Shown here piece by piece: positions 19,140-44,710 of a DNA stretch of 64,000 bases. Every line of letters begins with the position of its first letter. The stretch's first letter is position 1. The translations under genes were made by a program, and so were the position numbers. The notes below the pieces were generated by a model. That model was not told where the DNA came from, did not search any database, and worked only from the letters and a program-made list of their open reading frames with translations. The DNA is from Nannocystis pusilla. GTDB lineage: Bacteria > Myxococcota_A > Polyangia > Nannocystales > Nannocystaceae. The stretch is taken from assembly GCF_026626665.1 (NCBI RefSeq), contig NZ_JAPNKE010000002.1, forward strand, positions 3,373,168-3,437,167, in the 5' to 3' direction.

Positions 19140-19379
19140 ACCCCCTGGGGCCATCGGACAGGGTCTAAAGACCCTGGCCGAACGACCATGGTGAAAAGGA
19201 CATTGCCGGAGAGGCAGCCTCAGGTCAGCTCACCTGAGACCGCACCACCATAATCGTCGCGTGCTGCGCAGCGCAACCATTCACGCACCCCCGGATCACG
19301 CCTTGGTTCGGTGAGACCGCGAGCACAGAGCGGCCGCACGGACGCACTTCACGCGCATGGATGCGAAAGCCAATACAAT

Positions 19380-19510
19380 TTTTCGCGGTCTGGACAGGTT
19401 TTGGCGGCAACTACGACGATCCCACGGTCGGCGTCCGCGGCGCCGACAAGAAAATTGTAGATCAATACATATTCTTACTCTATTGATTAGAGCGCACCTG
19501 ACCGCAATGC
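19380..19510. promoter_or_regulatory. AT-rich island in the upstream region of the M4 protease gene
   Basis: A locally AT-rich stretch (caagaaaattgtagatcaatacatattcttactctattgattagagcgc) stands out in a 70% GC genome. It is positioned 250-370 bp upstream of the protease start on the minus strand. Confidence 0.35.
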
Positions 19511-19558
19511 ATGATCAACCAACCATGCTCACAGGTCTGCGGTCAGAAGAGATCTCCT

Positions 19559-20941
19559 CTACCCGCCGTCGGCGGTGTCATCGCCGACGATTCCGGCATC
19601 CGGCGCGCGGCGCGACCACAACCAGTAGACAGGCACGCCGGACAGCACGATGGCGCAGTCGACGACGAATTCCCGCGGCTGCGACAGGGCGTAGTTGCCG
19701 AGCAGGAACACGGAGGCGGCCAGGAACAGCAGCGGCACCCACGGGTAGCCGAACGTCCGGTACGGCCGCGGCAGGTCGGGGCGCTTGCGCCGCAGGACGA
19801 ACACGGCGGCCACGCTGAGCGCGTAGAACGGCCAGATGCCGATCACGAATTGCCTCGCCAGCTCGGCGAAGCTGTGGACCGAGACGAACACGATCCCGAG
19901 CGCGGCGCCGAGGACGATGCTGGCCGAGGGCGTGCCGTGGCGCGGGTGGACCTGGGCCAGCCGGCGAAAGAACAGCCGGTCCTCCGCCATGGCGTAGAAC
20001 ACCCGGGGCCCGGTCATCATCGACCCGTTGAGGGTGCCGAAGGTGCTGATCATGACGGCCGCGGCCACCAGAGTGGTGCCGAGCGAGCCGATCAGGGCGG
20101 CGGCGGTGTCGGCGGCGACCAGCTGCGCACGGGCCATCTGCTCCAGCGGGATGACCCGCAGGTACACGAGGTTGGCCGCGAGGTAGAGCGCGACGACCGC
20201 GGCGGTCCCGAGGATGAACACCCGCGGGAGCGTGCGCTGCGGATCGCAGACCTCGCCGCTCACGAAGCCGACGTCGCACCAGCCGTCGTAGGCCCAGAGG
20301 ATAGCGACCATCGCCAGGACGAAGGCCCCGTCGGCTGTCGGCGCCGCGACCGCGGCCGCCGGGACAGTCGCCTCCGGGGCCAGCAGGAGGCCGAGCGCGA
20401 CCAGCCCGAGCAGCGCCGCGACCTTCAGCGCGGTGCTGACGTTCTGCACGAGGGCCCCGAACTCGACGCCGCGGCGGTTGACCGCGGCGACCGTGGCGAT
20501 CATCGCCACCGCCACCACCTGGGCCCGCGACAGCGGTCCGAGCGCCGGCGGCGCTTCGTCGATGCCGAACGTGCGCAGCAGGTACTCGGCCGAGGTCACC
20601 GCGATCGCGCCGTACGCGGCCGGGCGCAGGATGAGCAGCTCGGCCCAGCCGAACAGGAAGGCCGGCAGCTTGCCGAACGCCTCGCGCAGGTAGACGTAGA
20701 TGCCGCCGCTGCGGGGATAGAGGATCGCCAGCTCGGCGACGGTCAATGCGCCGGCCAGGGCGACCACGCCGCCGGCGACCCACGCGAGGACGAACAGGGT
20801 CAGGTCGTCGATGTGGCCGGCGATCTCCGCCGGGGTCCGGAAGATGCCGCTGCCGATCGTCGAGCCGACCAGCACCGCGACGGTGCTGGCGAGGCCGAGC
20901 TTGCGAGGCAACCGCTCGCCCCAGGGGTCAGGGGCCTGCAT
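19559..20941 (-). CDS. APC-family amino acid permease
   Basis: 460 aa with about 12 predicted TM helices and an N-terminal GSGIF signature; intact ORF. Confidence 0.9.
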   Translation of the reverse strand: MQAPDPWGERLPRKLGLASTVAVLVGSTIGSGIFRTPAEIAGHIDDLTLFVLAWVAGGVVALAGALTVAELAILYPRSGGIYVYLREAFGKLPAFLFGWAELLILRPAAYGAIAVTSAEYLLRTFGIDEAPPALGPLSRAQVVAVAMIATVAAVNRRGVEFGALVQNVSTALKVAALLGLVALGLLLAPEATVPAAAVAAPTADGAFVLAMVAILWAYDGWCDVGFVSGEVCDPQRTLPRVFILGTAAVVALYLAANLVYLRVIPLEQMARAQLVAADTAAALIGSLGTTLVAAAVMISTFGTLNGSMMTGPRVFYAMAEDRLFFRRLAQVHPRHGTPSASIVLGAALGIVFVSVHSFAELARQFVIGIWPFYALSVAAVFVLRRKRPDLPRPYRTFGYPWVPLLFLAASVFLLGNYALSQPREFVVDCAIVLSGVPVYWLWSRRAPDAGIVGDDTADGG

Positions 20942-21713: not shown

Positions 21714-23819
21714 TCAACCCGGCTCGAGGACGAACGGGTACGAGACGATGACCGAGCCGCCGCCTTCCGGCTTGGGGAAGGTCCAGCGCTTGACCGCCTG
21801 GGCGATGCAGGAGCCGACCGCCGGGTCCTTCATCGTGCTCTCCTGGACCACCGCGGTGGGCACCTTGCCGGTGCCGCCGATGGTGAACTGGACGGCGACG
21901 CGGCCCTTGGCGTTGGGGTCGCGGGCGAGGGCCTGGTTGTAGCAGTAGCGGACCTCGTTGATGTGCGCGCGGACGATGCGGCGGATGATGTCCTTGTCGA
22001 GCGCGCCCTGGACCTCGGCCTTGGCCTGACGGACCGTCGGGACGCGGGTGCCGCGGCCGCCGAAGCCGGCGCCGGCGCCACGGCCGTAGCCGGAGCCCGT
22101 GCCGCCGCCGCCGCCCTTGCCGATGAGGCCCGTGTTGCCGAGGCCGATCGTGCCCTCGCCGGTGCCGCCGCCGCCGCGGCCGGTGCCGACCAGGCCGAGG
22201 CCGCCGACGCCGTACGCCTCGCCGATCTCCGTGCCGGTGAGGCCGCCCCACACGTCCGCGTCGTCGTTGCCGACCGCGAACGCGCCGCCGTACGGCGAGG
22301 CGAGGAAGTGGCCGCTCTCGGCGCTCATCACCCCGAGGATGCCGGCCTGGCGCGCGGCCATGTCGGGGTCGAAGTTACGGGCCATCTGCGGGATGGCGTC
22401 CTTCGGGCCCTTCATGGCGTAGAGGCCCGACTTGGTCTTCGAGGTGGGCTTGCCCATCTTGCCCTCCTCGCCCTTGTGACGCTGACCGGTGCCGCCGGCC
22501 TCGTCGTCGGAGTTCTCCATGTCCTCCGGCGGCGGCTCCTCCTCCTCCGGCGGCTTGTCGGGCTGGTTGAGGTAACCGACGAAGCGGTTCTCTTCCATCA
22601 TCTCGTCGAGGCTCAGGTTGCCGGCCTCGTTGGGGATCAGGTGCGTGAGCACCAGCAGGCTGCCGATGACCACGAACGACGCGCCGTTGTAGATCCAGAA
22701 CGGCTTGTCGGTCTCGCTGCCGCCCTTGATCACCGCGCCCGGCGCGACCGAGTTCACGTAGAAGGTGACGTCCTGGTACTTGACCCGCGCCGTCGCTCCG
22801 GGCGGCAGCGGGAAGCTGAACGACGAGCCCTGCGAGCCCGCGCGGCCGGTGGCGACCAGCTGCTGCAGCGTGATCGTCTGGCCGTCGAAGGTGACCTCGC
22901 CGCTCATGTTCTGCGTGAAGTTGAGCGCGAACTCGTGGTCGCTGCCGCGGACCAGCGGGAAGCCGTTGGGCTCGGGCAGGCCGGCCGGCGGCACGTGGAA
23001 CGACGCGCCGTGGCCCTCGCCGATCGTGAAGTTCTTGTTGACGTAGTCGCCGGTGCGGATGAGGCCCATGCTGAACGGCACGAGGCCCGCGATCGCCAGC
23101 AACATGCCGATCGCCGCCAGGCCGTTTCCGGGCGGGGTCGGGCGCGGCGTGCCCTGCTCGATCGACTCCTGGACCCGCTTGCCGTAGCCCGGCCAGTCCT
23201 GGTTCACGTCGCTGAAGAACACCGCCGTGCCGGCGGCCAGCATCACTCCGCCAATGGCGAGGAAGAGCGGCGCCTGCGACTTGCGGTTCTTCAGCTGGCC
23301 GACGTGCTGCACGTCGAGCACCGTCGAGCCGTACATCGCCACGACCTCGGCCACCCGCGAGCCGCTCTGAACCTCGACCTCGCTGAGGTCGATCTGGATC
23401 GGGGCCCGCGTCGCCATCGGCGCCGCCGCGAGCGGAGCCGCCGCCACCGCGGCCGCCGCCACGGCCACCGGCGCGGCCACCTGCGCCGGCGCCGGCGCAG
23501 CCGCGACCTGCTGCTTGGCGAAGCCGACCTCGAGCCGGTACGGCCCGAAGTTCAGGGCGTCGCCGTCGTGCAGCACCGCGTTCTTGTCGATCCGCTGGCC
23601 GTTGAGCACGGTGCCCGCCGCGCTCCCGAGATCGATCACCCGCACCTCTTCGCCGGACACCTCGATCACGGCGTGCATGCGGGCCACGGCCTCGTCATCC
23701 AGACAGATGTGGCTACTCTTCAGTTTTCCGATCTTGATAACGTCTTGCGTCAGCGTCTGCGTATCGACGAGCTGATCGCCGTAAAACACTTTGATGGCGA
23801 GCGTCTTGGTCGTTGTCAT
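21714..23819 (-). CDS. FHA-domain membrane protein with Gly-rich region and TonB-C-like C-terminal domain
   Basis: FHA domain (LAIKVFYGDQ...GKLKSSHICLDDEAVARMHAVIE...LNGQRI) and two TM segments. A Gly-rich tract (GTGRGGGGTGEG...) precedes a C-terminal TonB-C-like fold (VAVQFTIGGTGKV...VKRWTFPKP). The architecture recalls myxobacterial gliding-motility/Tol-like accessory proteins. Confidence 0.75.
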   Translation of the reverse strand: MTTTKTLAIKVFYGDQLVDTQTLTQDVIKIGKLKSSHICLDDEAVARMHAVIEVSGEEVRVIDLGSAAGTVLNGQRIDKNAVLHDGDALNFGPYRLEVGFAKQQVAAAPAPAQVAAPVAVAAAAVAAAPLAAAPMATRAPIQIDLSEVEVQSGSRVAEVVAMYGSTVLDVQHVGQLKNRKSQAPLFLAIGGVMLAAGTAVFFSDVNQDWPGYGKRVQESIEQGTPRPTPPGNGLAAIGMLLAIAGLVPFSMGLIRTGDYVNKNFTIGEGHGASFHVPPAGLPEPNGFPLVRGSDHEFALNFTQNMSGEVTFDGQTITLQQLVATGRAGSQGSSFSFPLPPGATARVKYQDVTFYVNSVAPGAVIKGGSETDKPFWIYNGASFVVIGSLLVLTHLIPNEAGNLSLDEMMEENRFVGYLNQPDKPPEEEEPPPEDMENSDDEAGGTGQRHKGEEGKMGKPTSKTKSGLYAMKGPKDAIPQMARNFDPDMAARQAGILGVMSAESGHFLASPYGGAFAVGNDDADVWGGLTGTEIGEAYGVGGLGLVGTGRGGGGTGEGTIGLGNTGLIGKGGGGGTGSGYGRGAGAGFGGRGTRVPTVRQAKAEVQGALDKDIIRRIVRAHINEVRYCYNQALARDPNAKGRVAVQFTIGGTGKVPTAVVQESTMKDPAVGSCIAQAVKRWTFPKPEGGGSVIVSYPFVLEPG

Positions 23820-24087
23820 CGTCCTTGCCCCGGTCGTGTGGCGCCTCGGACACGGGCCTTTGGGGCTTGTTCCCGAGGCCCGCGAGCTTTTTTCGCGCCC
23901 GCGCGGGCCGTCTGCGCCGGCGCACGTCCGCGCGCGGACCCGGGCTCCGGCGCGCCCCTGCGTCCGGCCACGCGTCCGCGGCTCGCGGCCGGCCGCGACG
24001 GCTTCGTGATACCGTGAACCGAGGCGCCGTCCGTGCCCGGATCCGGGCGAGGTGCGCCTGCCGCCCCTCTCCCGCCCTCGCCCCGGC

Positions 24088-24593
24088 ATGACCTCCGACC
24101 TCGCGCCCCCTCACCTCCCGGCCCGAGCCCGATCCTCACCCTCCGGATCAGCGTCCGCGGCCTCTATGACAGCTGGACGCACTGCCAGCGGCTGGCCGAT
24201 TACATCGCGCGCTTCGTCGCCTCCGATCGCTTCGATCCCGAGCAGCTGACCACGCGCCTCTCGACCTATCTCAACGAGGTGCTCGAGTACGTGTTCCGCG
24301 CCCGGCCGAGCGAGGGCGAGATCGTGGTCGAGGTCGGGCGCACCGACGAGCACGTGATCGCCGAGCTGACGATACCGACCGACGAGGCGCTCGCGCAGCG
24401 GCTGCGCGACGACCTCGGGCGGGTCGCGCCGGCGGACGCGCGCGCCCGCTACGAGGCCGAGTTCGAGTCGATGATCCTGCGTCCGCCGGCCGAGGTCGGG
24501 CTGCTCGAATTGGTGGCGCTCCACGGCGTCGAGCTCGCGCTGCGCGAGGGCGACGGCGTCGGCGTCATCGTCCTTACCGTCCCGCACGAGTGA
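24088..24593 (+). CDS. slr1658-superfamily / SiaB-like GHKL-type regulatory ATPase (start uncertain)
   Basis: LRISVRGLYDSWTHCQRLADYIARFV...LNEVLEYVFRA...GEIVVEVGRTDEHVIAELTIP parallels the downstream SiaB-like protein (LNELIENAVKF...GEFVVVVSNQV). It lacks an in-frame ATG, so a GTG start or an upstream frameshifted ATG at 24088 is likely. Confidence 0.55.
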
Positions 24594-24605
24594 GCCGAGC
24601 TGGGT

Positions 24606-25778
24606 ATGGAGAACGAGCAACCGTTTTCGATCCGCTTCAGCGAGAACGACCAGGAGGTCGCGCTCGAGGGGACGCTGCGGCCCGCCGGCCCCGAGGCGTT
24701 CGCGCCGGTGCGGGCGCGCCTCGACCACGCCGCCGACGCCGTGCGCGGCGTCCTCTACCTCAACTTCAAGCGCCTGCGTTACCTCAACCACACCGGCTTC
24801 CTCGAGCTCGCGCGCTTCATCGCCGCCTGCGCCGAGCGCCACCCGAGCCTCAAGCTCAAGCTCGTCGTCTCGAGCGTCGTCCCGTGGGCGCCGCTGCGGT
24901 TCGGCTTCCTCGGCGCGCAGTTCGGCAACACCATCGTCGAGCAGTACGACAAGGCGTTTTACCCCGGTCAGGGCGTCATCGAGAACGATCAGCTCGTGCC
25001 GGTCCTGCGGACTCAGACCAACATCGTGTGGTCGCACGAGCGCGAGCTGCTGCGCCGCCACGGCCTCGGCAAGCACATGCGGATCGCCGACATCTGCTGC
25101 GGGATCGGCGACTTCGCGGTGCTCGTCTACAAGGAGTTCGAGCCCGCGTACATCGTCGGCGTCGACCACTCGCGGCCCTTCCTTCAATACGCGCAGCAGA
25201 TGGCCCGCGAGTTCGGCATCACCGACATCGAGTATCAGTTCGGCGACGCGACCCACCTGTTCTTGCCGTCGAACAGCTTCGACTTCGTCACCTCGCGCCT
25301 GGCGCTGCAGATCTTCAACGACCCGTCGAGCATCTTGCGCGAGCTGGTGCGGATCTGTAAACCCGGCGGTCGGGTCTACCTGACCAACGAGATGACGGCG
25401 CACAACTACGGCTACCCGCGCCACGAGTCGGTCGCGTGGACCTACCAGCAGGCCGTGAAGATCGCCCAGAGCCTCGGCATGGACATGAACTTCGGGCCCA
25501 AGATGTTCTCGCAGCTCACCGACATGGGCCTCGAGGACGTGCGCATGGAGCAGATCCCGATCACCAACAACAACACCGCGATCGACGACTTCGCGCGGGT
25601 GATCGAGAGCTGGGAGGAGTACGTCACCGGCGAGCTGTCGACCGCCACGCAGCAGCCGCCGGAGGTGGTCGAGCGCCTGCGCATGGGCTTCCGCGATCAC
25701 GTCTACGCGATCCGCAGCCGCCGCGGCTTCGCCACCTGGCCGATCTACGTCGCCTCCGGCCGCAAACCGGAGCGCTGA
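24606..25778 (+). CDS. fusion protein: N-terminal SiaC-like (DUF1987) domain + class I SAM-dependent methyltransferase
   Basis: The N-terminal about 140 aa (FSIRFSENDQEVALEGTLRP...LYLNFKRLRYLNHTGFLELARF) aligns by eye with the stand-alone SiaC-like protein at 28742 (VWFDAPARTVHFEGVLRL...LQFLNSSGINMLYKF). The C-terminus carries methyltransferase motif I ADICCGIGDFA and post-I acidic residue (VGVDHS), then ICKPGGRVYL. Confidence 0.8.
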   Translation: MENEQPFSIRFSENDQEVALEGTLRPAGPEAFAPVRARLDHAADAVRGVLYLNFKRLRYLNHTGFLELARFIAACAERHPSLKLKLVVSSVVPWAPLRFGFLGAQFGNTIVEQYDKAFYPGQGVIENDQLVPVLRTQTNIVWSHERELLRRHGLGKHMRIADICCGIGDFAVLVYKEFEPAYIVGVDHSRPFLQYAQQMAREFGITDIEYQFGDATHLFLPSNSFDFVTSRLALQIFNDPSSILRELVRICKPGGRVYLTNEMTAHNYGYPRHESVAWTYQQAVKIAQSLGMDMNFGPKMFSQLTDMGLEDVRMEQIPITNNNTAIDDFARVIESWEEYVTGELSTATQQPPEVVERLRMGFRDHVYAIRSRRGFATWPIYVASGRKPER

Positions 25779-25799
25779 CGGCCCTCGCCGCTCGACCGC

Positions 25800-28159
25800 A
25801 TGGCCACCACGGGCTCAAGGTTCCGCACCAAGTTCGTCCTCGTCGCCGGGGTCGGGCTGGTCATCGGGCTGACGCTCGCGGCGCTGGCCTCGCTGCAGGG
25901 CATCCGCGTGCTCGGCGGCGACGCGTCGGAGGAGATCCGCAAGGGCCTCGAGCGAGCCAGCCGCGAGTACCTCACCAACCACATCGAGGACACCGCGCAG
26001 CGCGTCGAATTCCTGCGCGGGCGGGCGCGGGCCGAGCTCGGCGTGCTCGCGGCGGTCACCCAGACGCTCATCGACGAGCAGGCCGACCTCGCGCCGCTGA
26101 CCGCCGCCGCCGCCGCCGCCGGGCCGCTGCGCGACGCCCTCGTCTACGACCCGCGCGGCGACTGGTCGCAGACCGAGGCCGGCGAGGCGTCGGCGGTGGC
26201 CGTGTGGGGCTACCTGCACGCGCCGGTAGCTCCCGATCAGCCCGGCCTTCGGGACATCAAGCCCGAGGTCCGCGCCGCGGTCGAGCAGACCGCCCTGCTC
26301 GACCTGCTGCTGCCTGCGCTGCTGCAGTACGGGGCCGAGAAGCAGGCCATGTACTTCATCGGCCCCGAGGGCGCCGAGTACCTGCGGATCGCCCCCTACG
26401 CCGACGCGGCCGGCCACGCCGATCGACTCTATCCCGGCCACAACAAGAGCCCGTTCTGGGGCTTCTACTTCCCCGGCATCGTCGACGGCTGGCGGCGCTG
26501 GCTCGGCGACCCCGCGCGCATGCGCGACCCGGCGGCGCAGGTCACCGGCACCGCGCCGTACACCGACGCGGGCGGCAGCGGGGCCATCATGACCATGTTT
26601 CAGCCGCTGTGGGACGCCTCGCGCGCGCGTTCGCCGGGGCCGTCGGCGTCGACGTCACCCTCGGCCAATTGATCCGCTACGTCCAGGACCTCGAGCTCGC
26701 CGGCTCGGGCTTCGCCTTCCTCGCCCAGGAGAACGGCAACGTGTTCGCCGTCAACGCCGACGGCCAGGAGATCCTCGGCCTGCAGCAGGCCAGCGGCTCG
26801 TCGGGCGCCGGCGTCGACATCTTCCAGCAGTTCCTGCACCAGTCGCGCGACCCGGCCATCCGGGCGCTCGCGCTGCCCGGCGGCGACGCCGTCGACTACC
26901 GCGACCCGGTCGCGATCGGCGGCAAGGACTACGTCGTCGTGCTCAAGCGGCTCGATCCGTTCAACGTCTGGTCGGGTTCGACCGACATCGTGCCGGAGCG
27001 CTGGACCCTCGGCTTCGTCGTGCCTGCCGCCGAGATCTACGCCTCGCTGCACAAGGCGCAGGACACCATCGCTGCCAGCAGCCGCGGGATCCTCAGCAGC
27101 CAGATCGTCATCACCCTCGTCGCGCTGGCGATCGTGATGTTCGGGATCCTCCTGGTCTCGCGGCGCATGACCGGCGCGCTGGTCGACCTCGCCGCGGGCG
27201 CCGGCAAGATCGCGCAGAAGGACTACGACGTGCGGGTCGACGTGCGCAGCGACGACGAGTTCGGCGCGCTCGGCCGCGCCTTCAATCAGATGGCCGCCGA
27301 GATCCGCGCGTATACGCACGACCTCGAGCGCCTGGTCGAGCAGCGCACCGCCGAGCTGCAGCGGGCCTCCCGCGAGATCATGGCACTCAACGAGCGGCTC
27401 AAGCAGGAGAACCTGCGCCTCGGCGCCGAGCTCGACGTCGCCCGCCGGCTGCAGCTCATGGTGCTGCCGCAGGAGCGCGAGCTGGCCGAGCTCGAGGGCC
27501 TGGACGTCGCCGGCTACATGCGGCCCGCGGACGAGGTCGGCGGCGACTACTACGACGTCCTGCGCGCCGGCGACGGCGTCAAGATCGGCATCGGCGACGT
27601 CACCGGCCACGGCCTCGAGAGCGGCGTGCTGATGCTGATGATCCAGACGGCCGTGCGCACCTTGCAGGCCGCCGAGGAGCGCGACGCGGAGCGCTTCCTC
27701 AACATCGTCAACAAGGTCCTCTACCAGAACATCCAGCGCGTCGGCCTCGACCGCACCGCGACGCTGGTGCTCCTCGACTACGCGCAGGGCGTGCTCCGCC
27801 TCACCGGGCAGCACGAGGAGGCGGTGGTGGTCCGGCGGAACGGCTCGATCGAGCGCATCGACACGGTCGACCTCGGCATGCCGGTGGGGCTCGAGGTCGA
27901 CATCGCCGCGTTCATCGCCCGCACCGAGCTGCGCCTGTCGCCGGGCGATGTCGTCGTCCTGTACACTGACGGCATAACCGAGGCGGAGGACATCCACGGC
28001 GAGCAGTACGGCATCGACCGCCTGTGCGAGGTCGTGCACCGGGTCCACGAGCGGCCGGCGGCCGACATCAAGCAGGCGATCGTCGACGACGTCATGCGCT
28101 TCATCGGCGCGCAGAAGGTCTTCGACGACATCACGACGGTGGTGATCAAGCGGCGCTGA
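25800..28159 (+). CDS. membrane sensor PP2C-type phosphatase (TM - periplasmic Cache-like domain - TM - HAMP - SpoIIE/PP2C), SiaA-like
   Basis: TM1 (FVLVAGVGLVIGLTLAAL), an about 400-aa periplasmic region, TM2 (IVITLVALAIVMFGILLV), and a HAMP motif (DDEFGALGRAFNQMAAEI). PP2C motifs follow: GGDYYDV, GDVTGHG, LYTDGITEA. The frame changes once at a (CG)n run near 26615. Confidence 0.8.
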
Positions 28160-28181
28160 GGCGCCGAGGCGGACGGAGAGT

Positions 28182-28745
28182 ATGGACGGCATCATCGGCG
28201 AGTACAAAGAGCCCACCGACGCTGGACCGCGCGTCATGCTGACGTTCTACCCCGGGGCGTTCCCGGTGAAGTGGAACCAGTGCAGCGTGGCGGCCGACTT
28301 CTTCGCCGAGTACTTCGTCGACGTCGGCGAGGGCGGGCTCACCGAGGAGGCCGAGCGGCGCGACTTCGTCGGCAGCGTCGGTTACGTGCTCAACGAGCTG
28401 ATCGAGAACGCGGTCAAGTTCTGCGCCGGCGGCACCGTCGTCATCGACGCGGGCGTCGAGGCGGGCGAGTTCGTGGTCGTCGTCAGCAACCAGGTGTGCG
28501 GCGACGCGGTCGACGGCCTGCGGGTCAAGTTCGCCGAGCTGCTCGACGGCGATCCCGCCGAGCTCCTGATGCAGCGGGTCGAGGAGAACGCCGCCAACCC
28601 CGAACTCACGACCTCGGGCCTGGGCTTTCTCACCATGCTGTCGGACTACAAGGCCCGGCTCGGCTGGCGCTTCGACCCCGCCCCTGGCAATCCTGACAAC
28701 GCGCTCCTCAAGACCGCCGCCCGGCTACAGGTGAAATCGTCATGA
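28182..28745 (+). CDS. SiaB-like serine/threonine kinase (GHKL ATPase, anti-sigma-factor-like)
   Basis: 187 aa with an N-box-like LNELIENAVKF and a Gly-rich ATP lid region (TSGLGF). It sits between the PP2C gene and the SiaC-like gene, as in the siaABC operon. Confidence 0.8.
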   Translation: MDGIIGEYKEPTDAGPRVMLTFYPGAFPVKWNQCSVAADFFAEYFVDVGEGGLTEEAERRDFVGSVGYVLNELIENAVKFCAGGTVVIDAGVEAGEFVVVVSNQVCGDAVDGLRVKFAELLDGDPAELLMQRVEENAANPELTTSGLGFLTMLSDYKARLGWRFDPAPGNPDNALLKTAARLQVKSS

Positions 28746-29116
28746 CGGACACAACTACGCGACCCTCCGGGTCGGACACCGACATCAAAGGCCCCGGCTA
28801 TCGCGTGTGGTTCGACGCGCCCGCGCGCACGGTCCACTTCGAGGGCGTGCTCCGCCTCAGCACCAGCGAGTACAAGCCGATCGAGGACCTGCTCGACCGC
28901 GTCCTGCTGGAAAGCCCCGCGCTCGGCCTGCGCATGACCGAGCTGCAGTTCCTGAACAGCTCGGGCATCAACATGCTCTACAAGTTCGCCATCGCCGCGC
29001 GCAAGAAGGGCGAGACGGAGATCAAGGTCCACGGCTCGTCGAACATCCCGTGGCAGGGCAAGTCGCTGCCCAACCTCAAGAAGTTCCTGCCGACGATCGT
29101 CATCGCCCTCGACTGA
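28742..29116 (+). CDS. SiaC-like (DUF1987) regulatory phosphoprotein
   Basis: 124 aa with the characteristic FLNSSGINMLYKF motif. Its ATGA start overlaps the stop of the upstream kinase gene. Confidence 0.8.
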   Translation: MTDTTTRPSGSDTDIKGPGYRVWFDAPARTVHFEGVLRLSTSEYKPIEDLLDRVLLESPALGLRMTELQFLNSSGINMLYKFAIAARKKGETEIKVHGSSNIPWQGKSLPNLKKFLPTIVIALD

Positions 29117-29129: not shown

Positions 29130-30356
29130 ATGCTCACGGATGACCCGCGCTGGCAGCGAGCCCTCGCCGACCCCGACGCCGCGGCCGAGCTCCTGGCCGA
29201 CCCCGGCGCGCGCGCCGAGTTCATGGCCGCCGTCGCCGCGCTGCAGGCCGAGCACGACGACCTGGTCTTGCTGCACGACTCGACGCTCGAGCACGCCAAC
29301 GAGATCGAGGAGCAGCTGGCCGTCAAGATCGAGCAAGTCGAGGCCCTGGTGGTCGAGCTCGAGCTGCGCAACACCTTCATCCGCCAGGTGTTCGGCCGCC
29401 ACGTCACCGACGAGGTCGTCAACACCTTGCTCGCCTCGCCGGAGGGCCGCCAGCTCGGCGGCGAGCGGCGCACCCTGACGATCCTGATCTCCGACCTGCG
29501 CGGCTTCTCGACGCTGTGCGAGGGCCTCGGCCCCGAGCAGGTGGTGGCGATCCTCAACATCTACCTCGGCGCCATGGCCGACGTGATCGGCGAGTACCGC
29601 GGCTCGATCAACGAGTTCATCGGCGACGCCATCCTCGCGGTGTTCGGCGCCCCGGTGCCGCAGGACGACCACCCCGAGCGCGCGGTCGCCTGCGCGATCG
29701 CCATGCAGCGGGCGATGGGCCGCGTCAACGCCGAGCTGGCCGAGCACGGCCTGCCCGCGCTCGAGATGGGCATCGGCGTCCACACCGGCGAGGTCGTGGT
29801 CGGCAACATCGGCTCGAACCGCCGCGCCAAGTACGGCGTGGTCGGCCGCCACGTCAACCTGACCTCGCGCATCGAGAGCTACACCGTCGGCGGTCAGGTG
29901 CTGATCTCCGAGTCGGCCGCGCGAGCCCTCGGCGACCGCCTCCGCACCCGCGGCTGCTTCGAGGTCCGGCCCAAGGGCGTGCGCGAGCCGATCACGATCC
30001 ACGACGTCACCGGCGTCGACGGCCCGTTCGCCATCCACATGATCGAAGAGGCCGCCGAGTGGCGGGTCCTGGCCGAGCCGCAGCCGCTCGTCTTCACCGC
30101 GCTCGAGGGCAAGGACACCGGCGGCCAGGAGTTCCCGGCGCTGCTCGTGGCCCACGACGAGCGCCACAACGCCGAGCTGCGGGTCGCCGCCTCGCTGCCG
30201 CTGCGCGCCGACCTCAAGCTCGTCCTCGCCGCCCTGCCCGGCGTCGACGCCTACGCCAAGGTCGTCGCCGCCGGCCCGGGCCGCGCGGTCGTCCGCTTCA
30301 CCGCCCTGCCGCGCGCGCTGCAAGAGCTGCTCGACTCCCTGCCCGCGCGGGCCTGA
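29130..30356 (+). CDS. class III adenylate/guanylate cyclase with N-terminal coiled-coil/regulatory region
   Basis: Catalytic motifs ILISDLRGFSTL (metal Asp), FIGDAILAVFGAP (second Asp), and GIGVHTGEVVVGNIGSNRRAKYGVVGRHVNLTSRIES (transition-state Asn/Arg). Confidence 0.85.
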   Translation: MLTDDPRWQRALADPDAAAELLADPGARAEFMAAVAALQAEHDDLVLLHDSTLEHANEIEEQLAVKIEQVEALVVELELRNTFIRQVFGRHVTDEVVNTLLASPEGRQLGGERRTLTILISDLRGFSTLCEGLGPEQVVAILNIYLGAMADVIGEYRGSINEFIGDAILAVFGAPVPQDDHPERAVACAIAMQRAMGRVNAELAEHGLPALEMGIGVHTGEVVVGNIGSNRRAKYGVVGRHVNLTSRIESYTVGGQVLISESAARALGDRLRTRGCFEVRPKGVREPITIHDVTGVDGPFAIHMIEEAAEWRVLAEPQPLVFTALEGKDTGGQEFPALLVAHDERHNAELRVAASLPLRADLKLVLAALPGVDAYAKVVAAGPGRAVVRFTALPRALQELLDSLPARA

Positions 30357-30391
30357 GGCGCGAGGCGCAACGCTGCGCCTCGCTGCGCGAT

Positions 30392-30472
30392 GGGACATGT
30401 CCGTATCGACATGTCCTTCATGGCATGGCTGAACAGGCATGTCCTCCGGAGCATGCCCCATCGGACATGCCC
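30392..30472. repeat. GGACATGTCC-family array, six units with strict 15-bp period
   Basis: GGACATGTCCgtatc GACATGTCCttcat GGCATGGCTgaaca GGCATGTCCtccgg AGCATGCCCcatcg GACATGCCC. Lies between the convergent cyclase and kinase genes. Confidence 0.9.
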
Positions 30473-30482
30473 CTCCGGTACG

Positions 30483-32047
30483 TCAGTCGCGGCGGGCCAG
30501 CAGCGTCGCGTGCATGTCGCTGCCGTCGATGCTCTCGTCGAGCGGCTCGTCGATGTCGATGATCACGCTCTCGCCGCCCGAGCTGGTCGGCGGCGGGATC
30601 GGCGGGACCGAGCGCGGCGCGACCGAGCCCGGCGGGCCCTCGACGGGGGCGGTCCGCGACCCGCGGCCCTCGACGCCGGCGAAGCGGGCCGCCAGGGTGC
30701 GCACGAACGCGCCCATCCACGGCTTCATCGACGTCAGCTCCTCCTCGATCAGGTCGCTGGTGATCTTGGTGAGCGTCGCGTCCTCGACGACCAGCACGCT
30801 GGCGGTCCGGCGCGAGGCGGCGAAGATCGACGTCTCGCCGAACACGTCGCCCGGCCCGAGCCAGCGCAGCGACACGTGGTGCCCGGCCTCGAGCTTGTAG
30901 ACCTCGAGCCTGCCGGCCAGCACGATGTAGGCCGCGTCGCCGATCTCGCCCTCGCGGATCACGTGGTCGCCGGCGGCGAAGCGGACCGTCTGGAAGCTGC
31001 CGCTGCCGCGCAGCAGGCGGACGATGTCGGCCTGCAGCGCCGCCACGCTCGGGTAGCGATCGTCGGGGTCGCGGCGCAGCGCCCGGGTCACGATGCGCAC
31101 CAGCTCGCGCGGGAACGGCACCGCGACGTGGCTGTCGGGCGGGGCGAACTTCGCCTCGCGCGCGAGGATCAGCGCGTCCATCGCCGTGCGCGCGTGGTAC
31201 GGCGGCCGCCCGGCCATCATCTCGTAGAGCAGCGCGCCCATCGAGAACACGTCGGCGCGCTCGTCGAGCGGGTGGCTGTTGGCCTGCTCGGGCGACATGT
31301 ACGACGGCGTGCCGAACACCAGCCCGTCGGTCTCCGACGGCGGCAGCGGCGGCAGGGCGTCGCGGACCCACCGCGCCTCGTCTTCGGCGGACCGCAGCGG
31401 CAGGATCTGGGCCCCGCCCCAGTCCATCAGATAGACCTGGCCGTAGGCGCCGACCATCACGTTGGCCGACTTGATGTCGCAGTGGATCACCCCGCGGCTG
31501 TGGGCGAACGACAGCGCGTCGCACACCTTGACGAAGATCTCGAGGCGGTGGAACAGCCGCTCGTGGTCGGTCGCCGGCTCGCCGCCGATCAGCGCCTTCA
31601 GCTCTGGCCCTCGACCAGCTTCATCGTGAAGTAGAGCTGGCCCTGCTCGTCGCGCCCGAGCTCGTGGATCGGCACGATGTTGGGGTGGTCGAGCTGACCC
31701 GTCACCTGGGCCTCGCGCAAGAACCCGTGCACGAGCATCAGGTGGTCGTAGGTCTTGGCGTGCATGACCTTGGCGGCCATCCGCCGCTGCAGCACCTCGT
31801 CGAACGCGAGCCGCACCGAGCCCATCCCGCCGCGCGCCAGCTCGTCGCCGAACGACAGCCGCGGCACCTGGTCCGGCAGCGCCGCGCGGATGAGGGCCTC
31901 CAGCCGCTCCTCATAGGAGAGCGGGGAGTCGCGGTCGAACAGCCGCTCGAGCGCGGCGCTGGGGGACGAGCCTCCGGGGCGGCGACCTGGCATGCGGGGC
32001 CACGATACAATGGCGCCTCGGCGGTGGTACACCGGGGCGGCCGGCAT
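30483..32047 (-). CDS. Ser/Thr protein kinase with C-terminal cyclic-nucleotide-binding (cNMP) domain
   Basis: Kinase N-lobe (GRGGMGSV...AAKV) and catalytic loop (HCDIKSAN), DWG, SPE. The cNMP domain reads FAAGDHVIREGEIGDAAYIVLAGRLEVY...GPGDVFGETSIFAASRRTASVLVV. The two halves are in different frames and join at a cc/c site near 31590. The start is uncertain (31995 or 32047). Confidence 0.8.
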
Positions 32048-33200
32048 GGACCTGCGCACCGCCCTCGTCACGCTCCGCCTGCGCCACCCGTTCGGCCTGT
32101 CGCGCGGCACCGTGAGCGAACTGCCGAGCTTGCTCGTGCGCATCGACCCGGGCGACCCGGACGGCGCAGCAGCGGACGGCCCCGATCGCCGCGGCCTCGG
32201 TGAGGCCTCGCCCGTGCGCTACCTCGGTCAGTCGGCGGTCGCTGCCGCGCCGCTGGCGGTCGCGATCGCGGCCGAGCTCTCCCCCGAGATCCTCGCCGAC
32301 CCGCGCGCGATCGCGGCCGCCGGCCCGCGCATGCGCGAGCTCGCCCCCGATCACTCCGCGGCTCGCTGCGCCGTCGACACCGCCCTGTGGGACGCCGCCG
32401 CCCGCGCCTGCGGCCGCCCGCTGGCCGAGCTGCTGGCCGATCCCGACGTGCTCGATCGGGCAGGTCTCGATCGCCATGTCCTTTCGGCCACCTCGGGGGC
32501 CACGGTCACCTCTTACACGATCGCGCTCGACGAGCTCCCGGCGATGGCGGCCCGCGCGGCCGCGGCCGCGCACCTCCCGGTGCTCAAGATCAAGCTCGGA
32601 AAGGGCCGCGAATTCGACCGCGCCGCCCTGCGTGCGGTCGCCGCCGCCGCGCCGCGCGCCCGCCTGCGGGTCGACGCCAACGGCGGCTGGACCCCGGACG
32701 ACGTGCGCGCCCTGCTCCCGCTGCTGGTCGATCTCGGGGTCGAGCAGCTCGAGCAGCCGCTGCCTGCGGGTCGGCCCGACCTCCTCGCGGCGCTCGCGCG
32801 CGACTGCCCGTTGCCGATCTACGCCGACGAGGACGTGCAGGGCCCGGACGACGTGGCGGCGCTGCGGGGCCGGGTCGCGGGGATCAACGTCAAGCTGATG
32901 AAGTGCGGCGGGATCTCGCCGGCCCTGGCGACGATCGCCGCGGCCCGGGATAGCGGCCTGCGGGTGCTCGTCGGCTGCATGATCGAGACCCGCGTCGGGC
33001 TCGCCGCCGGCGCCGCCCTGGCCCGCCTCGCCGACGAGGCCGACCTCGACGCCCACATGCTCACGCGGGCCGACCCGATGCCGCCGGGGAGCCAAGAGCG
33101 GCTCGCGCCCGACCTGCCGCGGCTTTGCGGCCCCGGCCTCGGCGTCCCGCCCGGGGCGTTGCCCGCGGACGGCGACCCGGGCCCCGGGCGCGTGGCATAA
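32046..33200 (+). CDS. enolase-superfamily enzyme (dipeptide epimerase / muconate-cycloisomerase-like)
   Basis: Metal-ligand and catalytic motifs: KIKLG (Lys), RVDANGGW (Asp), EQP (Glu), YADE (Asp), NVKLMKCGG (Lys). Confidence 0.75.
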   Translation: MDLRTALVTLRLRHPFGLSRGTVSELPSLLVRIDPGDPDGAAADGPDRRGLGEASPVRYLGQSAVAAAPLAVAIAAELSPEILADPRAIAAAGPRMRELAPDHSAARCAVDTALWDAAARACGRPLAELLADPDVLDRAGLDRHVLSATSGATVTSYTIALDELPAMAARAAAAAHLPVLKIKLGKGREFDRAALRAVAAAAPRARLRVDANGGWTPDDVRALLPLLVDLGVEQLEQPLPAGRPDLLAALARDCPLPIYADEDVQGPDDVAALRGRVAGINVKLMKCGGISPALATIAAARDSGLRVLVGCMIETRVGLAAGAALARLADEADLDAHMLTRADPMPPGSQERLAPDLPRLCGPGLGVPPGALPADGDPGPGRVA

Positions 33201-33213: not shown

Positions 33214-36200
33214 TTGAATCCCGACGAGCCCCAGGCCCGCGCCTCGCTGCCGGTGACGCCACCTGTCCCTGAGGACATCCTTCCGCGTCCGCTCGGCCGC
33301 TACGAGCTGGTGCGTCGGGTCGGCTCCGGCAGCATGGGCGTCGTCTACGCGGCCGTCGATCGCGACAGCGGCCGCACCATCGCGCTCAAGACCCTGCACC
33401 AGCTCGACCCGGGCGCGCTGTTCCGCCTCAAGAACGAGTTCCGCAGCGCCGCCGGCCTGTCGCACCCGAACCTCGTCAGCCTCCACCAGCTCGTCTCGCA
33501 CGACGACGAGTGGTTCATCACCATGGAGTTCGTCGACGGCGTCAGCTTCTTCGACCATGTCCGTCAGGGCATGTCCGAAAGGACAGGCGCAGCGCCGCCG
33601 CCGGAGCGCCTGCGCCCCGCCTTGCTGCAGCTGGCCGCCGGCGTCAGCGCCCTGCACGCCGCCGGCAAGCTGCACCGCGACCTCAAGTCGTCGAACGTGC
33701 TGGTCACCGCCGACGGCCGCGTCGTCATCCTCGACTTCGGCCTCGCCGCCGACGACGTCGCCGAGGGCGGCGAGGACGGCCTGCTCGGCACGCCGGCGAC
33801 GATGGCGCCGGAGCAGGCCGCCGGCAACCCGGCCTCGCCCGCGAGCGACTGGTACGCGATCGGCGTCATGCTCTACGAGGCGCTGACCGGCCGCCTGCCG
33901 TTCACCGGCCCGCCGCTCGCGATCCTCCACGCCAAGCAGCACGAAGATCCGGCGCCGCCGCAGGCGCTCGTGCCCGACGTCGATCCGAGCTGGCGGCGCT
34001 GTGCATGGGCCTGCTGCAGCGCGACCCGGCCGCGCGGCTCGGCGGCGCCGACATCCGCGAGGCCCTCGGCGAGGCCCCGCTCGGGCCCACCGAGTCGGGC
34101 GCGCGCTTCGTCGGCCGCGACGACCTGCTGTCGGCCATGCGCGACGCCTTCCAGCTCGCGCTCGCCGGCTCGCCGGTGTGCGTGTACGTCCGCGGCCGCT
34201 CCGGCATCGGCAAGACCGCGCTCATCGATCGCTTCATCGCCGAGCTGCGCCGCAACGACCGCGCCTTCGTCCTCCAGGGCCGCTGCTACGAGCGCGAGAG
34301 CGTGCCGTACAAGGCCTTCGACAGCGTCCTCGACGCGCTCGCGCAGCACCTCCGCCACCTCCCGCAGGAGGAGGCCGCGGCCCTGCTGCCGCGCGAGATC
34401 CACGAGCTCACGCGGCTGTTCCCCGTCCTCGCGCGCGCCCCCGTGGTCGCCGATCTGCCGCAGCGCAACTTCGTCGCCCCCGACCCGCAAGAGGCGCGGC
34501 GTCGGGCCTTCCGCGGGCTCAAGGAGCTGCTGGCGCGGATCGCCGATCGCCGCCCGCTGGTGCTGCGGATCGCCGACCTGCAGTGGGGCGACGAGGACAG
34601 CGCGCGCCTGCTGGTCGAGCTGCTGTCGCCGCCCGATCCGCCGGCGATGCTCTTCATCGGCTCGTACCGCATCGACGAGGACGACGCGCCGATGCTCCGC
34701 GAGCTGCGGCGGCTCGGCGCGCGGCCCGAGCTCAAGGCGCTGGTGCGCGACCTGCTGGTCGAGCCGCTCTCGCCCGATCAGGCCGAGGAGCTCGCGCTCG
34801 CCCGGCTCGGCCGCGACAGCGACAGCGCGCGCGCCGAGGCGCGCCGGATCGCCGCCGAGTCGGGCGGCAACCCGCTGTTCGTCGAGGAGCTCGCGCGTCA
34901 CATCGCCGGTCACCGCGGCGCCGCGCCGGCCGAGGTCTCGCTCGACGCGGTCGTGCGCACCCGCCTCGCCGGCCTGCGCGCCGCCGGTCGCAGCCTGCTC
35001 GAGATCGTCGCCGTCGCCGGGCGGCCGATCCCGCCGAGCCTCGCGTTCACGGCCTCGGGCGTCACCGATCGCGCGGTCCTCGGCGAGCTGCAGGCGCAGC
35101 ACCTGCTGCGCACGCTGGCCTCGCGCAGCGGCGACACCGTCGAGTGCTACCACGACCGGATCCGCGACACCGTGCTGGCGCAGCTCGGCGGCGACCGCCT
35201 GGCGCAGCTGCACCGCACCCTCGCCGACGCCCTCGCGCAGTCGGCCGACGACCCCGAGCTGCTGGCCCACCACCTGCACGCCGCCGGCGCCTTGAAGGAG
35301 GCGCACGCGGCCGCCGTCGCCGCCGCCGAGCGGGCCGCCGCTTCACTCGCCTTCTACCGCGCCGCCCAGCTGTACGGTCGCGCCCTCGCGTGGGCGTCCG
35401 ACCTCCCGGACGACGAGCGGCGCGCCCTCCTGCGTCGCCGCGCCGACGCGCTCGCGCTGGCCGGTCGCAGCGCCGAAGCGGCCCCCGTCTACGCCAGCGC
35501 CGCCGAGGGCGCCTCGCCGGCCGAATCACTCGAGCTGCGCCGCCGCGCCGGCGAGCAGTTCCTCGTCAGCGGCAACATCGACCAGGGCGTGCAGATGCTG
35601 CGCCCCGCGCTGGTCGAGGTCGACCTCGGCTACCCGGCCACGCCCGGCCGCGCCAACATGTCGATCATCACTCGCTCGACGCAGCTCAGCCTGCGCGGCC
35701 TCGGCTTCGCCGCGGTGCGCGAGGAGCAGGTCCCGCCGGCCGACCTGCTGCGCCTCGACGTGTGCCTGTCGGCCGCCGTCGGCCTCGCCTTCGTCGACCC
35801 GATCCGCGGCTACAGCTTCTACCAGCGCGGCCTCCTCCTGGCCCTTCAGACAGGTGAGCCGCAGCGGATCGCCCGCGCCCTCGCCGGCGTCGGCGCCATG
35901 ATCATGAGCCGCGGCACCGCCAACGCCGTCGGCCGCGGCACCACCCTGCTCAAGGAGGCGCGCCGCCTCGCCGAGCAGCTCTCCGAGCCGCGCCTCATCG
36001 GCCTGTGCGAGATCGTCGACGCCATCGCCGCCGTCTCGCTCGGCCGCTGGCGCCGCGCGCTCGAGCACTGCGAGCAGGGCGCCCAGATCCTGCTCGACCG
36101 CTGCGTCGGCGTCGGCTGGGAGCTCGACCTCGCCCGCATGAGCACGATGCGCGGCCTGTTCATGCTCGGCGAGCTGGCCGAGCTCGGCCACCGCGCCCAC

Positions 36201-38502: not shown

Positions 38503-38556
38503 GGGACATGTCGCTTGCGACATGTCCCCTGCAGCATGTCTTTGGTGACATGCCGC
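38503..38556. repeat. GGACATGTCC-family array, four units, about 15-bp period
   Basis: GGGACATGTCgcttgc GACATGTCCcctgc AGCATGTCTttggt GACATGCCG. Confidence 0.9.
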
Positions 38557-38574: not shown

Positions 38575-39617
38575 CTACTGGTCGAACAGCTCGAGCAGCG
38601 TGCGCAGCCCCGGCGAGCCGGGCGCCTGCGGCTTGTCGGCCAGCGCGCGGCGGATCTCGAGGTGCGCCGCCGGCAGGATCGACCGCAGCTGCTCGAGCGC
38701 CTTCGGATCGCCGCCCTGGGCCGCTGCCACCTTCGCCTGCACCCGCTCGCGCCCGGGCCCCGCGAGCCGCGGGCCCACGTCCCACGCGGTCACGACCGCG
38801 CCTGCACCGAGGGACATGTCTCCGAGTTCATCGTGGCGCAGCTTCGCCGGCCGTTCGCTCGTCAGCACGTCCAGCCGGCCCAGAGTGAACCGTTGCCCCG
38901 CCCCCAGCGCCGTCGCCCGGCCCGCGCGCAGCAGCGTCACGCCCGCGTCGACCGCCGTCAGAGTCAGCGTCGCCTCGGTCGTCCACGTGCCCGCGTCGAT
39001 CTGCGGATAGTGCCCCTTCGCCGCCGCCAGCAGGCCCTTCGGCACCTTCAAGCCCGAGTAGCCGACCGGCGGCGCCGCCTGCTGCGCCACGCCGTGAACT
39101 CGATCGGCCCCGTCTCGAACTGGCCCTTCAGCAGCGCCTCGCAGGCCCGCAGGTGCCGCTCGATCCGCCCCAGCAGCTCCGCCCGCACAGGCGCGCTCGC
39201 CGGCAGCGGCGCCGCCCGGCGCCACAGGTAGCCGGCCAGCCCCGCGTGGAAGAGCGGCAGCGCCTCCATGCTGCTCAGCAGCGCCGGCAGCTCGGCCATC
39301 GTCTCGCCGCCGCCCGCCTTGCGCGCCTCGACGTGGGCCCGCCAGCGGCTGCGAAACGCCTCGCCTTCGGCGCCGCCGACCGCGTCCGCCAGCGCCTCGA
39401 GGGCGGACGCGACCTGCAACCAGCGCGGGTCGGAGGCCGGCGTCGCCTCCGGCACGGTCACCAGCGCCAGCGCCAATCGCTTGCCCGGCCCGACGTCGAG
39501 CCCGTCGTCGGCGACGAGCCGCGCCCACCGGCCCAGCGCCGCCTCGTCGGCCAGCGGGAACACGTCGGGCCCGAGCGCCGGCGCGGCGCTCTCCGCAGCA
39601 CTTGTCTCCCGGGACAT
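38575..39617 (-). CDS. hypothetical protein
   Basis: About 347 aa with two halves in different frames; no recognised domain. Its ATG lies inside a copy of the GGACATGTCC element. It sits immediately downstream of, and is co-oriented with, the radical SAM gene. Confidence 0.45.
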
Positions 39618-39892
39618 GTCCTCTTCACCCTGCTGCAAAGGACCTGCCCCATTCGACATGTCCTGAGAGCCTTGCCCCGCGCCGGGCGCCGCCCCGTGCC
39701 CGTCCGGCTCCTCGCGCCCGCGCAGCCGGTCGGCGCAGCCCTGCACGAACACGATCAGCAGCGCGAGCAGGCGGATCGCCGGCGCCGCCGCGCTCGAGAG
39801 CAGCGCCACCTGGCCGCGGCGCCAGCGGAGCACCACCGCCGCGGCCAGCGCGAGCGCCACCGCGAACGACCCCAGATCGAGCCACCAGCGCC

Positions 39893-44614: not shown

Positions 44615-44710
44615 CACCGGGGACATGTCCCTCGGGTCAGCCTGGGAGCCTGGCACTCGGGACATGTTCGCAAGGCCAGCCCCCGGTCGGCCGGCACTCA
44701 GGACATGTCG
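44615..44710. repeat. GGACATGTCC-family array, three units at 40-bp spacing
   Basis: cacCGGGGACATGTCCCtcggg / cactCGGGACATGTTCgcaagg / cactcAGGACATGTCggcgcg. Confidence 0.85.

Follow-up and report, generated by a model that had tools for sequence, protein, structure and literature searches.

To our knowledge, few bacterial systems that signal with cyclic GMP (cGMP) have been described, and few of its receptors are known. R. centenum CgrA is one example of a bacterial cGMP receptor, and cGMP-activated TIR defense proteins have reportedly been found in bacteria in recent preprint work. The closest bacterial precedent for the locus described here is the XC_0250/XC_0249 pair of Xanthomonas campestris, in which a guanylyl cyclase lies adjacent to a cGMP-binding effector that joins a cyclic-nucleotide-binding (CNB) domain to a GGDEF domain (PMC3770947). 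In Plasmodium's cGMP-dependent protein kinase (PKG), PfPKG, residues L472 and R473 on strand 5 specifically recognize guanine, as is likewise the case in CNB-B of human PKG I, and T493 bridges the phosphate and guanine N2 (PMC4412288). Synechocystis Cya2 is described as carrying an E-G base-specifying pair (PMC4215837) and as a guanylyl cyclase that a single E488K change converts to an adenylyl cyclase (PMC5995499). In SiaABCD of P. aeruginosa, a trio of phosphatase, kinase, and switch protein controls a nucleotide cyclase (PMC7647112, PMC8457831). Here, we describe a locus in a 64-kb stretch of Nannocystis pusilla DNA (the window), where the gene for a Ser/Thr kinase with a C-terminal CNB domain, on the minus strand, converges with the gene for a Cya2-type class III cyclase, on the plus strand. 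We found that the two genes are co-inherited in related genomes, and on balance we favor a reading in which the intact kinase and the cyclase would form a relay from cGMP to Ser/Thr phosphorylation, with the nucleotide, the direction of regulation, and the substrates being predicted.

The features of the locus are given below in window coordinates; the repaired protein is the one read after a single base is restored at the frameshift site.

31598 to 31993, minus strand: 5' segment of the kinase gene, encoding an N-terminal helical extension and the kinase N-lobe (three-frame translation), with the Gly-rich loop ARGGMGSV, the Lys in MAAKV, and the Glu in FLREAQ; premature TGA at 31600-31598
31600 to 31601, minus strand: frameshift site (gapped alignment to N. 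punicea)
30483 to 31597, minus strand: 3' segment of the kinase gene, encoding the C-lobe (HCDIKSAN, MDWG, YMSPEQ), the cNMP-binding domain, and a disordered tail; stop at 30485-30483
31032 to 31846, minus strand: protein kinase catalytic domain, PknB-like (Pfam PF00069, repaired-protein residues 68-339), with the frameshift inside the domain
30741 to 30986, minus strand: cyclic-nucleotide-binding domain (Pfam PF00027, repaired-protein residues 355-436)
30795 to 30842, minus strand: phosphate-binding cassette FGETSIFAASRRTASV, read from the sequence, with Gly, Glu, Arg, Thr, and Ala present
30864 to 30869, minus strand: β5 Leu-Arg pair (in SLRW), the equivalent of PfPKG L472/R473
30357 to 30482, no strand: convergent spacer of 126 nucleotides (nt), with a GC-rich hairpin after the cyclase stop and then six palindromic units
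29130 to 30356, plus strand: class III nucleotidyl cyclase, Cya2-type, 408 amino acids (aa) (Pfam PF00211)
29613 to 29615, plus strand: cyclase Glu162, the first base-specifying residue (alignment to Cya2 Glu488)
29835 to 29837, plus strand: cyclase Gly236, the second base-specifying residue (alignment to the Cya2 Gly)
24087 to 29116, plus strand: upstream genes on the cyclase strand (Pfam, NCBIfam)

An earlier, sequence-only reading of this DNA had described a eukaryotic-like kinase with a C-terminal cNMP-binding domain, placed tail-to-tail with a class III cyclase. The motifs it quoted are all found on the minus strand (RGGMGSV..AAKV, HCDIKSAN, DWG, FAAGDHVIREGE.., and FGETS..RRTASV), and its domain assignments agree with our Pfam searches, which returned Pkinase (3.4e-37) and cNMP_binding (9.1e-18) on the repaired protein and Guanylate_cyc (4.2e-26) on the neighbor. 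A domain scan found that the cyclase is the sole one in the window and that the kinase carries the window's sole cNMP-binding domain. The genes are indeed convergent, with the cyclase stop at 30354-30356 facing the kinase stop at 30485-30483, but the spacer between them measures 126 nt and not the 127 given earlier. The treatment of 30483-32047 as one gene frame did not hold, since its 1565 nt are not divisible by 3 and the N-lobe frame stops before the C-lobe begins, at the TGA of 31600-31598. The start codon is likely the ATG at 31993, where the orthologues begin (MP[SG]RRPGG), and not 32047.

The kinase match of the repaired protein reaches 128.7 bits against a Pfam cutoff of 31.7, and the best sequence match of the catalytic domain is M. 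tuberculosis PknB (1.2e-39, phmmer). In the alignment to PknB, the β3 Lys, the αC Glu, the catalytic Asp, Lys, and Asn, the Mg-binding Asp of DWG, and SPE are all kept, and the core residues of Hanks-type kinases are accordingly found in ARGGMGSV, AAK, FLREAQ, HCDIKSAN, MDWG, and SPEQ. Two canonical motifs are altered throughout the family: HCD takes the place of HRD in 79 of 84 relatives, putting the kinase in the non-RD class, and DWG that of DFG in 83 of them. Phosphorylation of the activation loop is usually dispensable for non-RD kinases, and DWG is also found in the constitutively active CK2. Since the kinase shares both traits, its residues would fit an active enzyme whose control comes from the attached domain and not from the phosphorylated activation loop. 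For the N. punicea orthologue, AlphaFold gave a model, based on an 84-sequence alignment, that is confident for both domains (predicted local distance difference test score 83.6, predicted template modeling score 0.74), and in it the last kinase helix (317-330) leads straight into the sensor β-barrel (335-412), followed by two helices (413-444) and a disordered tail. A Foldseek search with this model placed PknB first (E 1e-21, TM 0.89); the whole model drew kinase-domain matches alone, and no solved structure among them spans both domains in this order. The combination of Pkinase and cNMP_binding domains is abundant in sequence databases, where it is shared by all of the best 120 of 6920 matches (E ≤ 1e-20), and these proteins are annotated by their domains alone.

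The disordered tail itself holds a conserved motif, E-S-[VI]-x-I-D, in 44 of the 84 relatives; in the window it lies at ~30534-30575 on the minus strand, and in the N. punicea protein (P0001) at residues ~470-485. Short paralogues unlinked to a cyclase lack it. The motif may serve in docking or as a pseudosubstrate.

The sensor domain scores 64.5 bits against a cutoff of 27.5 over residues 355-436. It has the β-barrel and the G-E-x(n)-R-[ST]-A cassette of a CNB domain, and in the model the barrel is followed by the αB and αC helices. Across the 84 relatives, the cassette residues G386, E387, R396, and A398 never vary, and conservation of T397, like that of L376 and R377 of β5, is at least 90%. 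The sequence-only reading had named loss of the conserved Arg and Ser/Thr as a sign of a degenerate domain; we found the cassette intact, with G, E, R, T, and A all present. Among solved sequences, cGMP-dependent protein kinases come closest (PfPKG, 1.3e-23; PKG I, 7.7e-17), and the alignment pairs SLRW of the window with L472/R473 of PfPKG, FGE with E483, and RRTAS with R492/T493. By this alignment, both the β5 Leu-Arg and the cassette Arg-Thr are in place, so the sensor pocket appears to carry the PKG-type contacts for cGMP.

A 446-aa paralogue in N. punicea (P0093; L087, 11644563-11665903) has the same cGMP-type pocket residues; its neighbors are ankyrin-repeat and metallo-β-lactamase-fold proteins, with no cyclase nearby. 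This paralogue suggests that there are several nucleotide-responsive kinases per genome.

The neighboring cyclase has its catalytic domain at ~29472-29978, along with a coiled-coil/transducer region; its C-terminal extension of ~110 aa drew no family match. Residues 108-305 match Synechocystis Cya2 (PDB 2W01) at 1.5e-69 with ~60% identity. The first base-specifying position is Glu162 (gsinEFiGD, compared to gtidEFmGD in Cya2), and the second is Gly236 (KYGVVG in both), where adenylyl cyclases have Lys and Asp. The metal-binding D122 and D166 and the transition-state N243 and R247 are also present. The Glu162/Gly236 pair predicts the production of cGMP. Whether cAMP or cGMP is favored had been left open by the sequence-only reading; judged from their residues, both the pocket and the cyclase lean to cGMP.

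To what extent the kinase and cyclase travel together was assessed in a scan of representative genomes, among whose listed loci there was no Nannocystis, and close relatives were reached by exact-protein look-up. N. punicea has the tail-to-tail pair together with the same operon as the window. At greater distance, a 65% orthologue (L082/L083) keeps the tail-to-tail pair with a shortened operon; at a 70%-identical orthologue (L088), a single glycosyltransferase gene separates kinase and cyclase; a 58% orthologue (L084/L085) lies tail-to-tail with the cyclase alone, unrelated genes replacing those of the partner switch; and in two 50% orthologues (L086, L090), the cyclase is directly upstream on the same strand. 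Altogether, within the clade of at least 50% identity, the window and 6 of the 7 other genomes examined have a cyclase adjacent or one gene away. At eight loci, the identities of kinase and cyclase to their window counterparts fall in parallel (92/94, 70/79, 65/62, 58/58, 50/57, 50/54, 47/49, and 42/44%), and across these co-diverging loci the orientation of the pair varies among tail-to-tail, head-to-tail, and 5 kb apart. Among the 80 loci listed from representative genomes, a class III cyclase lies within 10 kb of 10 of 46 kinase+CNB loci compared to 1 of 34 kinase-only loci, at which a related kinase lacks the CNB domain (one-sided Fisher p ~0.016 among the loci listed); the most distant kinase+CNB loci have cyclases of other types.

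The kinase and cyclase are thus co-inherited, and the conserved unit is the kinase-cyclase pair and not the kinase with the partner switch, since the pair exists without partner-switch genes in L084/L085, L086, and L090. For the same reason, we rejected the kinase as a member of the partner-switch operon. The linkage that the sequence-only reading had proposed to look for in related genomes does recur, and the two genes co-diverge. Its further suggestion, a relay downstream of the partner switch, is supported in part, by the adjacency of a producer and a candidate receptor, but the conserved partner is the cyclase and not the partner-switch operon.

In the living cell, the kinase is most likely encoded by a single unbroken minus-strand gene of ~503 codons (31993 to 30483), whose product would be a soluble PknB-type Ser/Thr kinase with its last helix leading directly into a single C-terminal CNB domain. 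An external signal would set the activity of the cyclase, via a PP2C switch in Nannocystis and via other inputs elsewhere; at this locus, the upstream sensory PP2C phosphatase and the slr1658/slr1659 proteins would probably do so. The cyclase is predicted to make cGMP, which would bind the kinase's own C-terminal sensor domain, and the helices on either side of the barrel would then change conformation and so alter kinase output toward its substrates. Candidate routes of control are dimerization and the release of the conserved tail motif. A broader proposal seems to us evenly balanced, namely that the Nannocystis lineage and its relatives independently built a cGMP-dependent, PknB-type, non-RD kinase with a PKG-type pocket, long co-inherited with a dedicated Cya2-type guanylyl cyclase and gated in Nannocystis by a SiaABC-like switch behind an extracellular dCache sensor.

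Since the kinase gene is interrupted in the assembly, we examined the break in its context. The N-lobe frame (..ARGGMGSV..MAAKV..FLREAQ..YFTMKLVEGQS, then stop) closes at the premature TGA, and three-frame translation finds the remainder (ELKALIGGEPA..HCDIKSAN..MDWG..SPEQ..) in another frame. Gapped alignment to N. punicea reveals a single base absent between 31600 and 31601, the plus strand reading CTTCA directly followed by GCTCTGG in the window and CTTGAGGCTCTGG in N. punicea. When one base is inserted after ..CAGAGC, a 521-codon open reading frame results that reads ..EGQSLKALIGG.., as in the orthologues. In tblastn searches, residues 1-130 of the N. punicea protein P0001 matched 31993-31604 in frame -1 (91.5% identity) and residues 129-504 matched 31610-30486 in frame -3 (91.2% identity), within a syntenic locus that is 93.6% identical in nucleotides over 15.3 kb. 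The NCBI annotation covers the 3' segment alone, as a 357/372-aa protein (P0007/P0134), and the C-terminal fragment has 100% identity to the 357-aa N. pusilla protein. Five other Nannocystis species and two N. pusilla strains have intact orthologues. These are 499-504 aa long in N. punicea (WP_269040659; 92% identity), N. exedens, N. radixulma, N. bainbridge, unclassified Nannocystis strains, and two other N. pusilla assemblies; another long N. pusilla assembly splits the same gene elsewhere, into 434 and 46 aa.

The kinase gene is not alone in being split. When 14 N. punicea proteins were searched against the window by tblastn, 5 of the 14 genes were frame-split by isolated 1-2-nt indels: those for the dCache-HAMP-PP2C phosphatase (break at 26630), the CNB kinase (31600/31601), a 1228-aa kinase-AAA16 protein (33987), a 442-aa protein, and a radical-SAM protein (the last two breaks at ~39100 and ~40438). 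Amino acid identity flanking the five breaks is 74-97%, and 91-92% for the CNB kinase. Since it is implausible that a third of the genes were freshly inactivated in a free-living bacterium, and since the orthologues are intact, the break in the kinase is, from its sequence context, most likely an indel error of the long-read assembly. Programmed -1 frameshifting at 31600/31601 was considered and rejected; a slip there would restore the orthologous sequence, but there is no slippery heptamer, and the other four breaks would be left unexplained. Indels of 1-2 nt appear to be numerous in this assembly, and genes that look like pseudogenes in it are therefore suspect.

Several observations nonetheless weigh against a cGMP-to-kinase relay at this locus. 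The deposited sequence does contain the frame break and, as it stands, holds no uninterrupted coding sequence for a Hanks-type kinase. If the break were genuine, the kinase would be a recent pseudogene or two nonfunctional fragments in this N. pusilla strain, hence with no relay there. The deletion is present in a deposited complete genome of which NCBI annotates the C-terminal fragment alone, and the site lacks a long homopolymer, with a single G in the window where N. punicea has GG; still, true decay at the rate implied by the five split genes is implausible, the second long N. pusilla assembly breaks the gene at a different place, other strains have it intact, and the site offers no slippery sequence for frameshifting, which makes a genuine break very improbable. 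The kinase and cyclase genes also converge, hence are not co-transcribed, and no cyclase lies within 10 kb of one 54% orthologue (P0077) or of the clade of short 446-aa paralogues (P0093). Myxobacteria, moreover, encode many cyclases. These points would suit a kinase that senses a global pool fed by many cyclases, its neighborhood being kept by shared descent and without specific function. We consider this improbable, as the pair survives orientation flips, gene insertion, and partner-switch loss while its other neighbors change completely, the two genes co-diverge, and cyclases are enriched near kinase+CNB compared to kinase-only loci among those listed. Our full-text literature searches, the kinase atlas preprint included, found no characterized bacterial kinase-CNB fusion. 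The layout of a cyclase plus a CNB-fused effector does resemble Pycsar, and PADLOC returned a PycC match (2.8e-28) along with matches to PD-T4-6 kinases. An anti-phage defense pair is nevertheless extremely improbable: the PADLOC matches reflect generic domain homology and the Cya2 match is far stronger (1.5e-69), the chromosomal neighborhood is stable, with purT or, in relatives, smpB, the cyclase lies downstream of a dCache-HAMP sensory phosphatase, and the effector is a kinase without a TIR or transmembrane killing domain. A Pycsar-type system was rejected as an assignment for the locus, PADLOC giving generic matches alone and the cyclase being Cya2-like with a purine pocket.

The identity of the messenger is where the relay is most open to another account, in which it would operate as described but with cyclic AMP (cAMP), or both nucleotides, as messenger, the Glu/Gly pair not specifying GTP here and the sensor domain being nonselective. 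HCN channels, which respond to cAMP, likewise have Arg-Thr in the cassette, no assignment could be made for the αC (C-helix) capping residue of the sensor pocket, and the same pocket residues recur in paralogues unlinked to a cyclase. More distant relatives adjoin cyclases whose first specificity position is Lys or Gln, the Lys type being adenylyl-cyclase-like. In Cya2, a Tyr three residues after the transition-state Asn is reported to boost guanylyl cyclase activity, and the enzyme is reported to bind ATP and GTP with similar affinity (PMC4215837). The window cyclase has Ser in place of this Tyr (VNLTSRIES compared to VNLTYRIES in Cya2), and the linked cyclases carry Ser, Ala, or Gly at the position. 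Even so, the Glu/Gly pair is kept in all eight co-diverging linked cyclases, Cya2 needs the Glu-to-Lys change to become an adenylyl cyclase (PMC5995499), and PKG contacts guanine specifically through the β5 Leu-Arg and the cassette Thr (PMC4412288). We regard a cAMP or mixed relay as unlikely and keep cGMP as the favored messenger.

The genes upstream of the cyclase (24087-29116, plus strand) encode a 168-aa slr1658-like protein, a methyltransferase, the dCache-HAMP-PP2C phosphatase, a 187-aa slr1658-superfamily (SiaB-like) protein, and a 124-aa slr1659-superfamily protein, in the same order in N. punicea. The 187-aa and 124-aa proteins match NCBIfam NF047703 slr1658_superfam (6.6e-42) and NF047705 slr1659_superfam (2.3e-36), both above cutoffs, and the 168-aa gene is a second, weaker slr1658-like one. 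NCBIfam also gives a weak SiaB_fam_kinase match (2.8e-5), below its cutoff. Pfam gives the small operon proteins sub-threshold STAS (0.022) and HATPase matches alone, and the phosphatase, whose gene is frame-broken at ~26630, has a SpoIIE/PP2C match of 3.6e-39. By analogy, a SiaABC-like switch is a plausible input route to the cyclase. An N-terminal region of ~120 aa in the methyltransferase has no assignment. In a metagenomic relative (L082, also L083), a second, divergently oriented module lies ~4 kb from the pair (16263-20909); it comprises genes for a GRAS-family protein, a SpoIIE phosphatase, three proteins of 179, 176, and 135 aa, and a second cyclase with noncanonical specificity positions (..KVTTIGD.., ..FDLWGD..). 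Divergent from the cyclase operon in the window is the gene for an FHA-domain protein of ~701 aa (21714-23819, minus strand), which is 98.7% identical to its N. punicea counterpart and is the most conserved gene of the region. Since FHA domains bind phosphothreonine, this protein is a candidate downstream partner of the Ser/Thr kinase.

The sequence-only reading had also pointed to a six-unit palindromic array between the two genes. The six units are present, with a 14-nt period (consensus GGACATGTCC) and CATG cores at 30396, 30410, 30424, 30438, 30452, and 30466, but they are not specific to the spacer. With up to 2 mismatches, the 10-nt palindrome GGACATGTCC occurs 71 times in the window compared to 25.9 ± 5.2 expected, and 0 of 100 shuffles reach 71. 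Arrays with the 14-nt period lie at 9151-9174, 16404-16427, 30393-30472, 33553-33576, 38504-38527, 39612-39663, 44621-44710, 49650-49673, 49958-49981, 61530-61553, and 63182-63205; two units at 33553-33576 are part of the coding sequence for the 1228-aa kinase-AAA16 protein and contribute to its ..HVRQGMSERTG.. stretch. Since the motif recurs at about ten other sites in the window, a dedicated regulatory array in the spacer is not supported, and the palindrome looks like a repeat family of the repetitive extragenic palindromic (REP) type dispersed through the window; we know of no description of such a GGACATGTCC family. The spacer RNA has a predicted fold of -65.9 kcal/mol (z = -4.9), and no U-tract terminator was found in it. 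From the strength of this predicted fold, the spacer may act as a two-way transcription stop. Scans of 30200-32300 for consensus promoters and terminators found nothing and are uninformative in a 72% GC genome.

If the relay is as we propose, it would add a new class of bacterial cGMP effector to the transcription factors, diguanylate cyclase, and TIR proteins, and would be the first direct bacterial link between cGMP and Ser/Thr phosphorylation. The logic of a second messenger acting on a protein kinase, long held to be a eukaryotic hallmark, would then have arisen separately in bacteria from different parts. The hypothesis is easily testable because producer and receptor form a defined, conserved gene pair, and public genomes and metagenomes hold many kinases of this family.

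Each part of the locus has a described counterpart from which it departs. The upstream operon resembles SiaABCD in its logic, with a HAMP-PP2C phosphatase, a putative SiaB-like kinase, and a putative switch protein, the latter two small, encoded ahead of a nucleotide cyclase; unlike in SiaABCD, the output is a class III mononucleotide cyclase where SiaD is a GGDEF enzyme, the SiaB match is weak, with the proteins falling in the slr1658/slr1659 superfamilies, and there is an extra methyltransferase as well as the second slr1658-like gene. The cyclase shares with Cya2 a ~60% identical catalytic domain, the same Glu/Gly pair, the metal Asps, and the Asn/Arg pair, but Cya2 is membrane-bound with an N-terminal CHASE2 sensor and has the Tyr of VNLTYRIES, whereas the window enzyme is soluble, 408 aa long, has Ser at that position, and carries an unassigned C-terminal domain. 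PknB, the best sequence and fold match of the catalytic domain, is a receptor kinase that sits in the membrane and has PASTA domains and an RD loop; the window protein is of the non-RD type, soluble, and has a CNB domain fused to it. In XC_0250/XC_0249, as here, a class III guanylyl cyclase adjoins a CNB protein that controls an attached enzyme domain, and the adjacency is kept in related genomes. The two pairs differ in their output, a diguanylate cyclase in XC_0249 and a Ser/Thr kinase in the window, in the cyclase, which here is of the Cya2 type and lies behind a partner-switch operon, and in the pocket, where XC_0249 has an Asn-Glu diad and the window protein has PKG-type contacts.

The resemblance to PKG is of another kind. 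Human PKG I and PfPKG also combine a Ser/Thr kinase and CNB domains in one polypeptide, and the best solved matches of the window CNB domain are CNB-B and CNB-D of PKG, with the same β5 Leu-Arg, cassette Glu, and Arg-Thr. On the other hand, the window catalytic domain is PknB-type where that of PKG belongs to the AGC family, its single CNB domain is C-terminal where PKG has two to four at the N terminus, it has neither a leucine zipper nor a recognizable pseudosubstrate, and it is non-RD (HCD) with DWG. Given a PknB-type catalytic domain, a reversed order of domains, and only one CNB domain, the protein is best read as an independent fusion and not as a PKG orthologue. Together, these features point to a kinase that resembles PKG functionally and not by family membership, and with its cyclase it may form a bacterial equivalent of the cGMP-dependent kinase pathway of animals.

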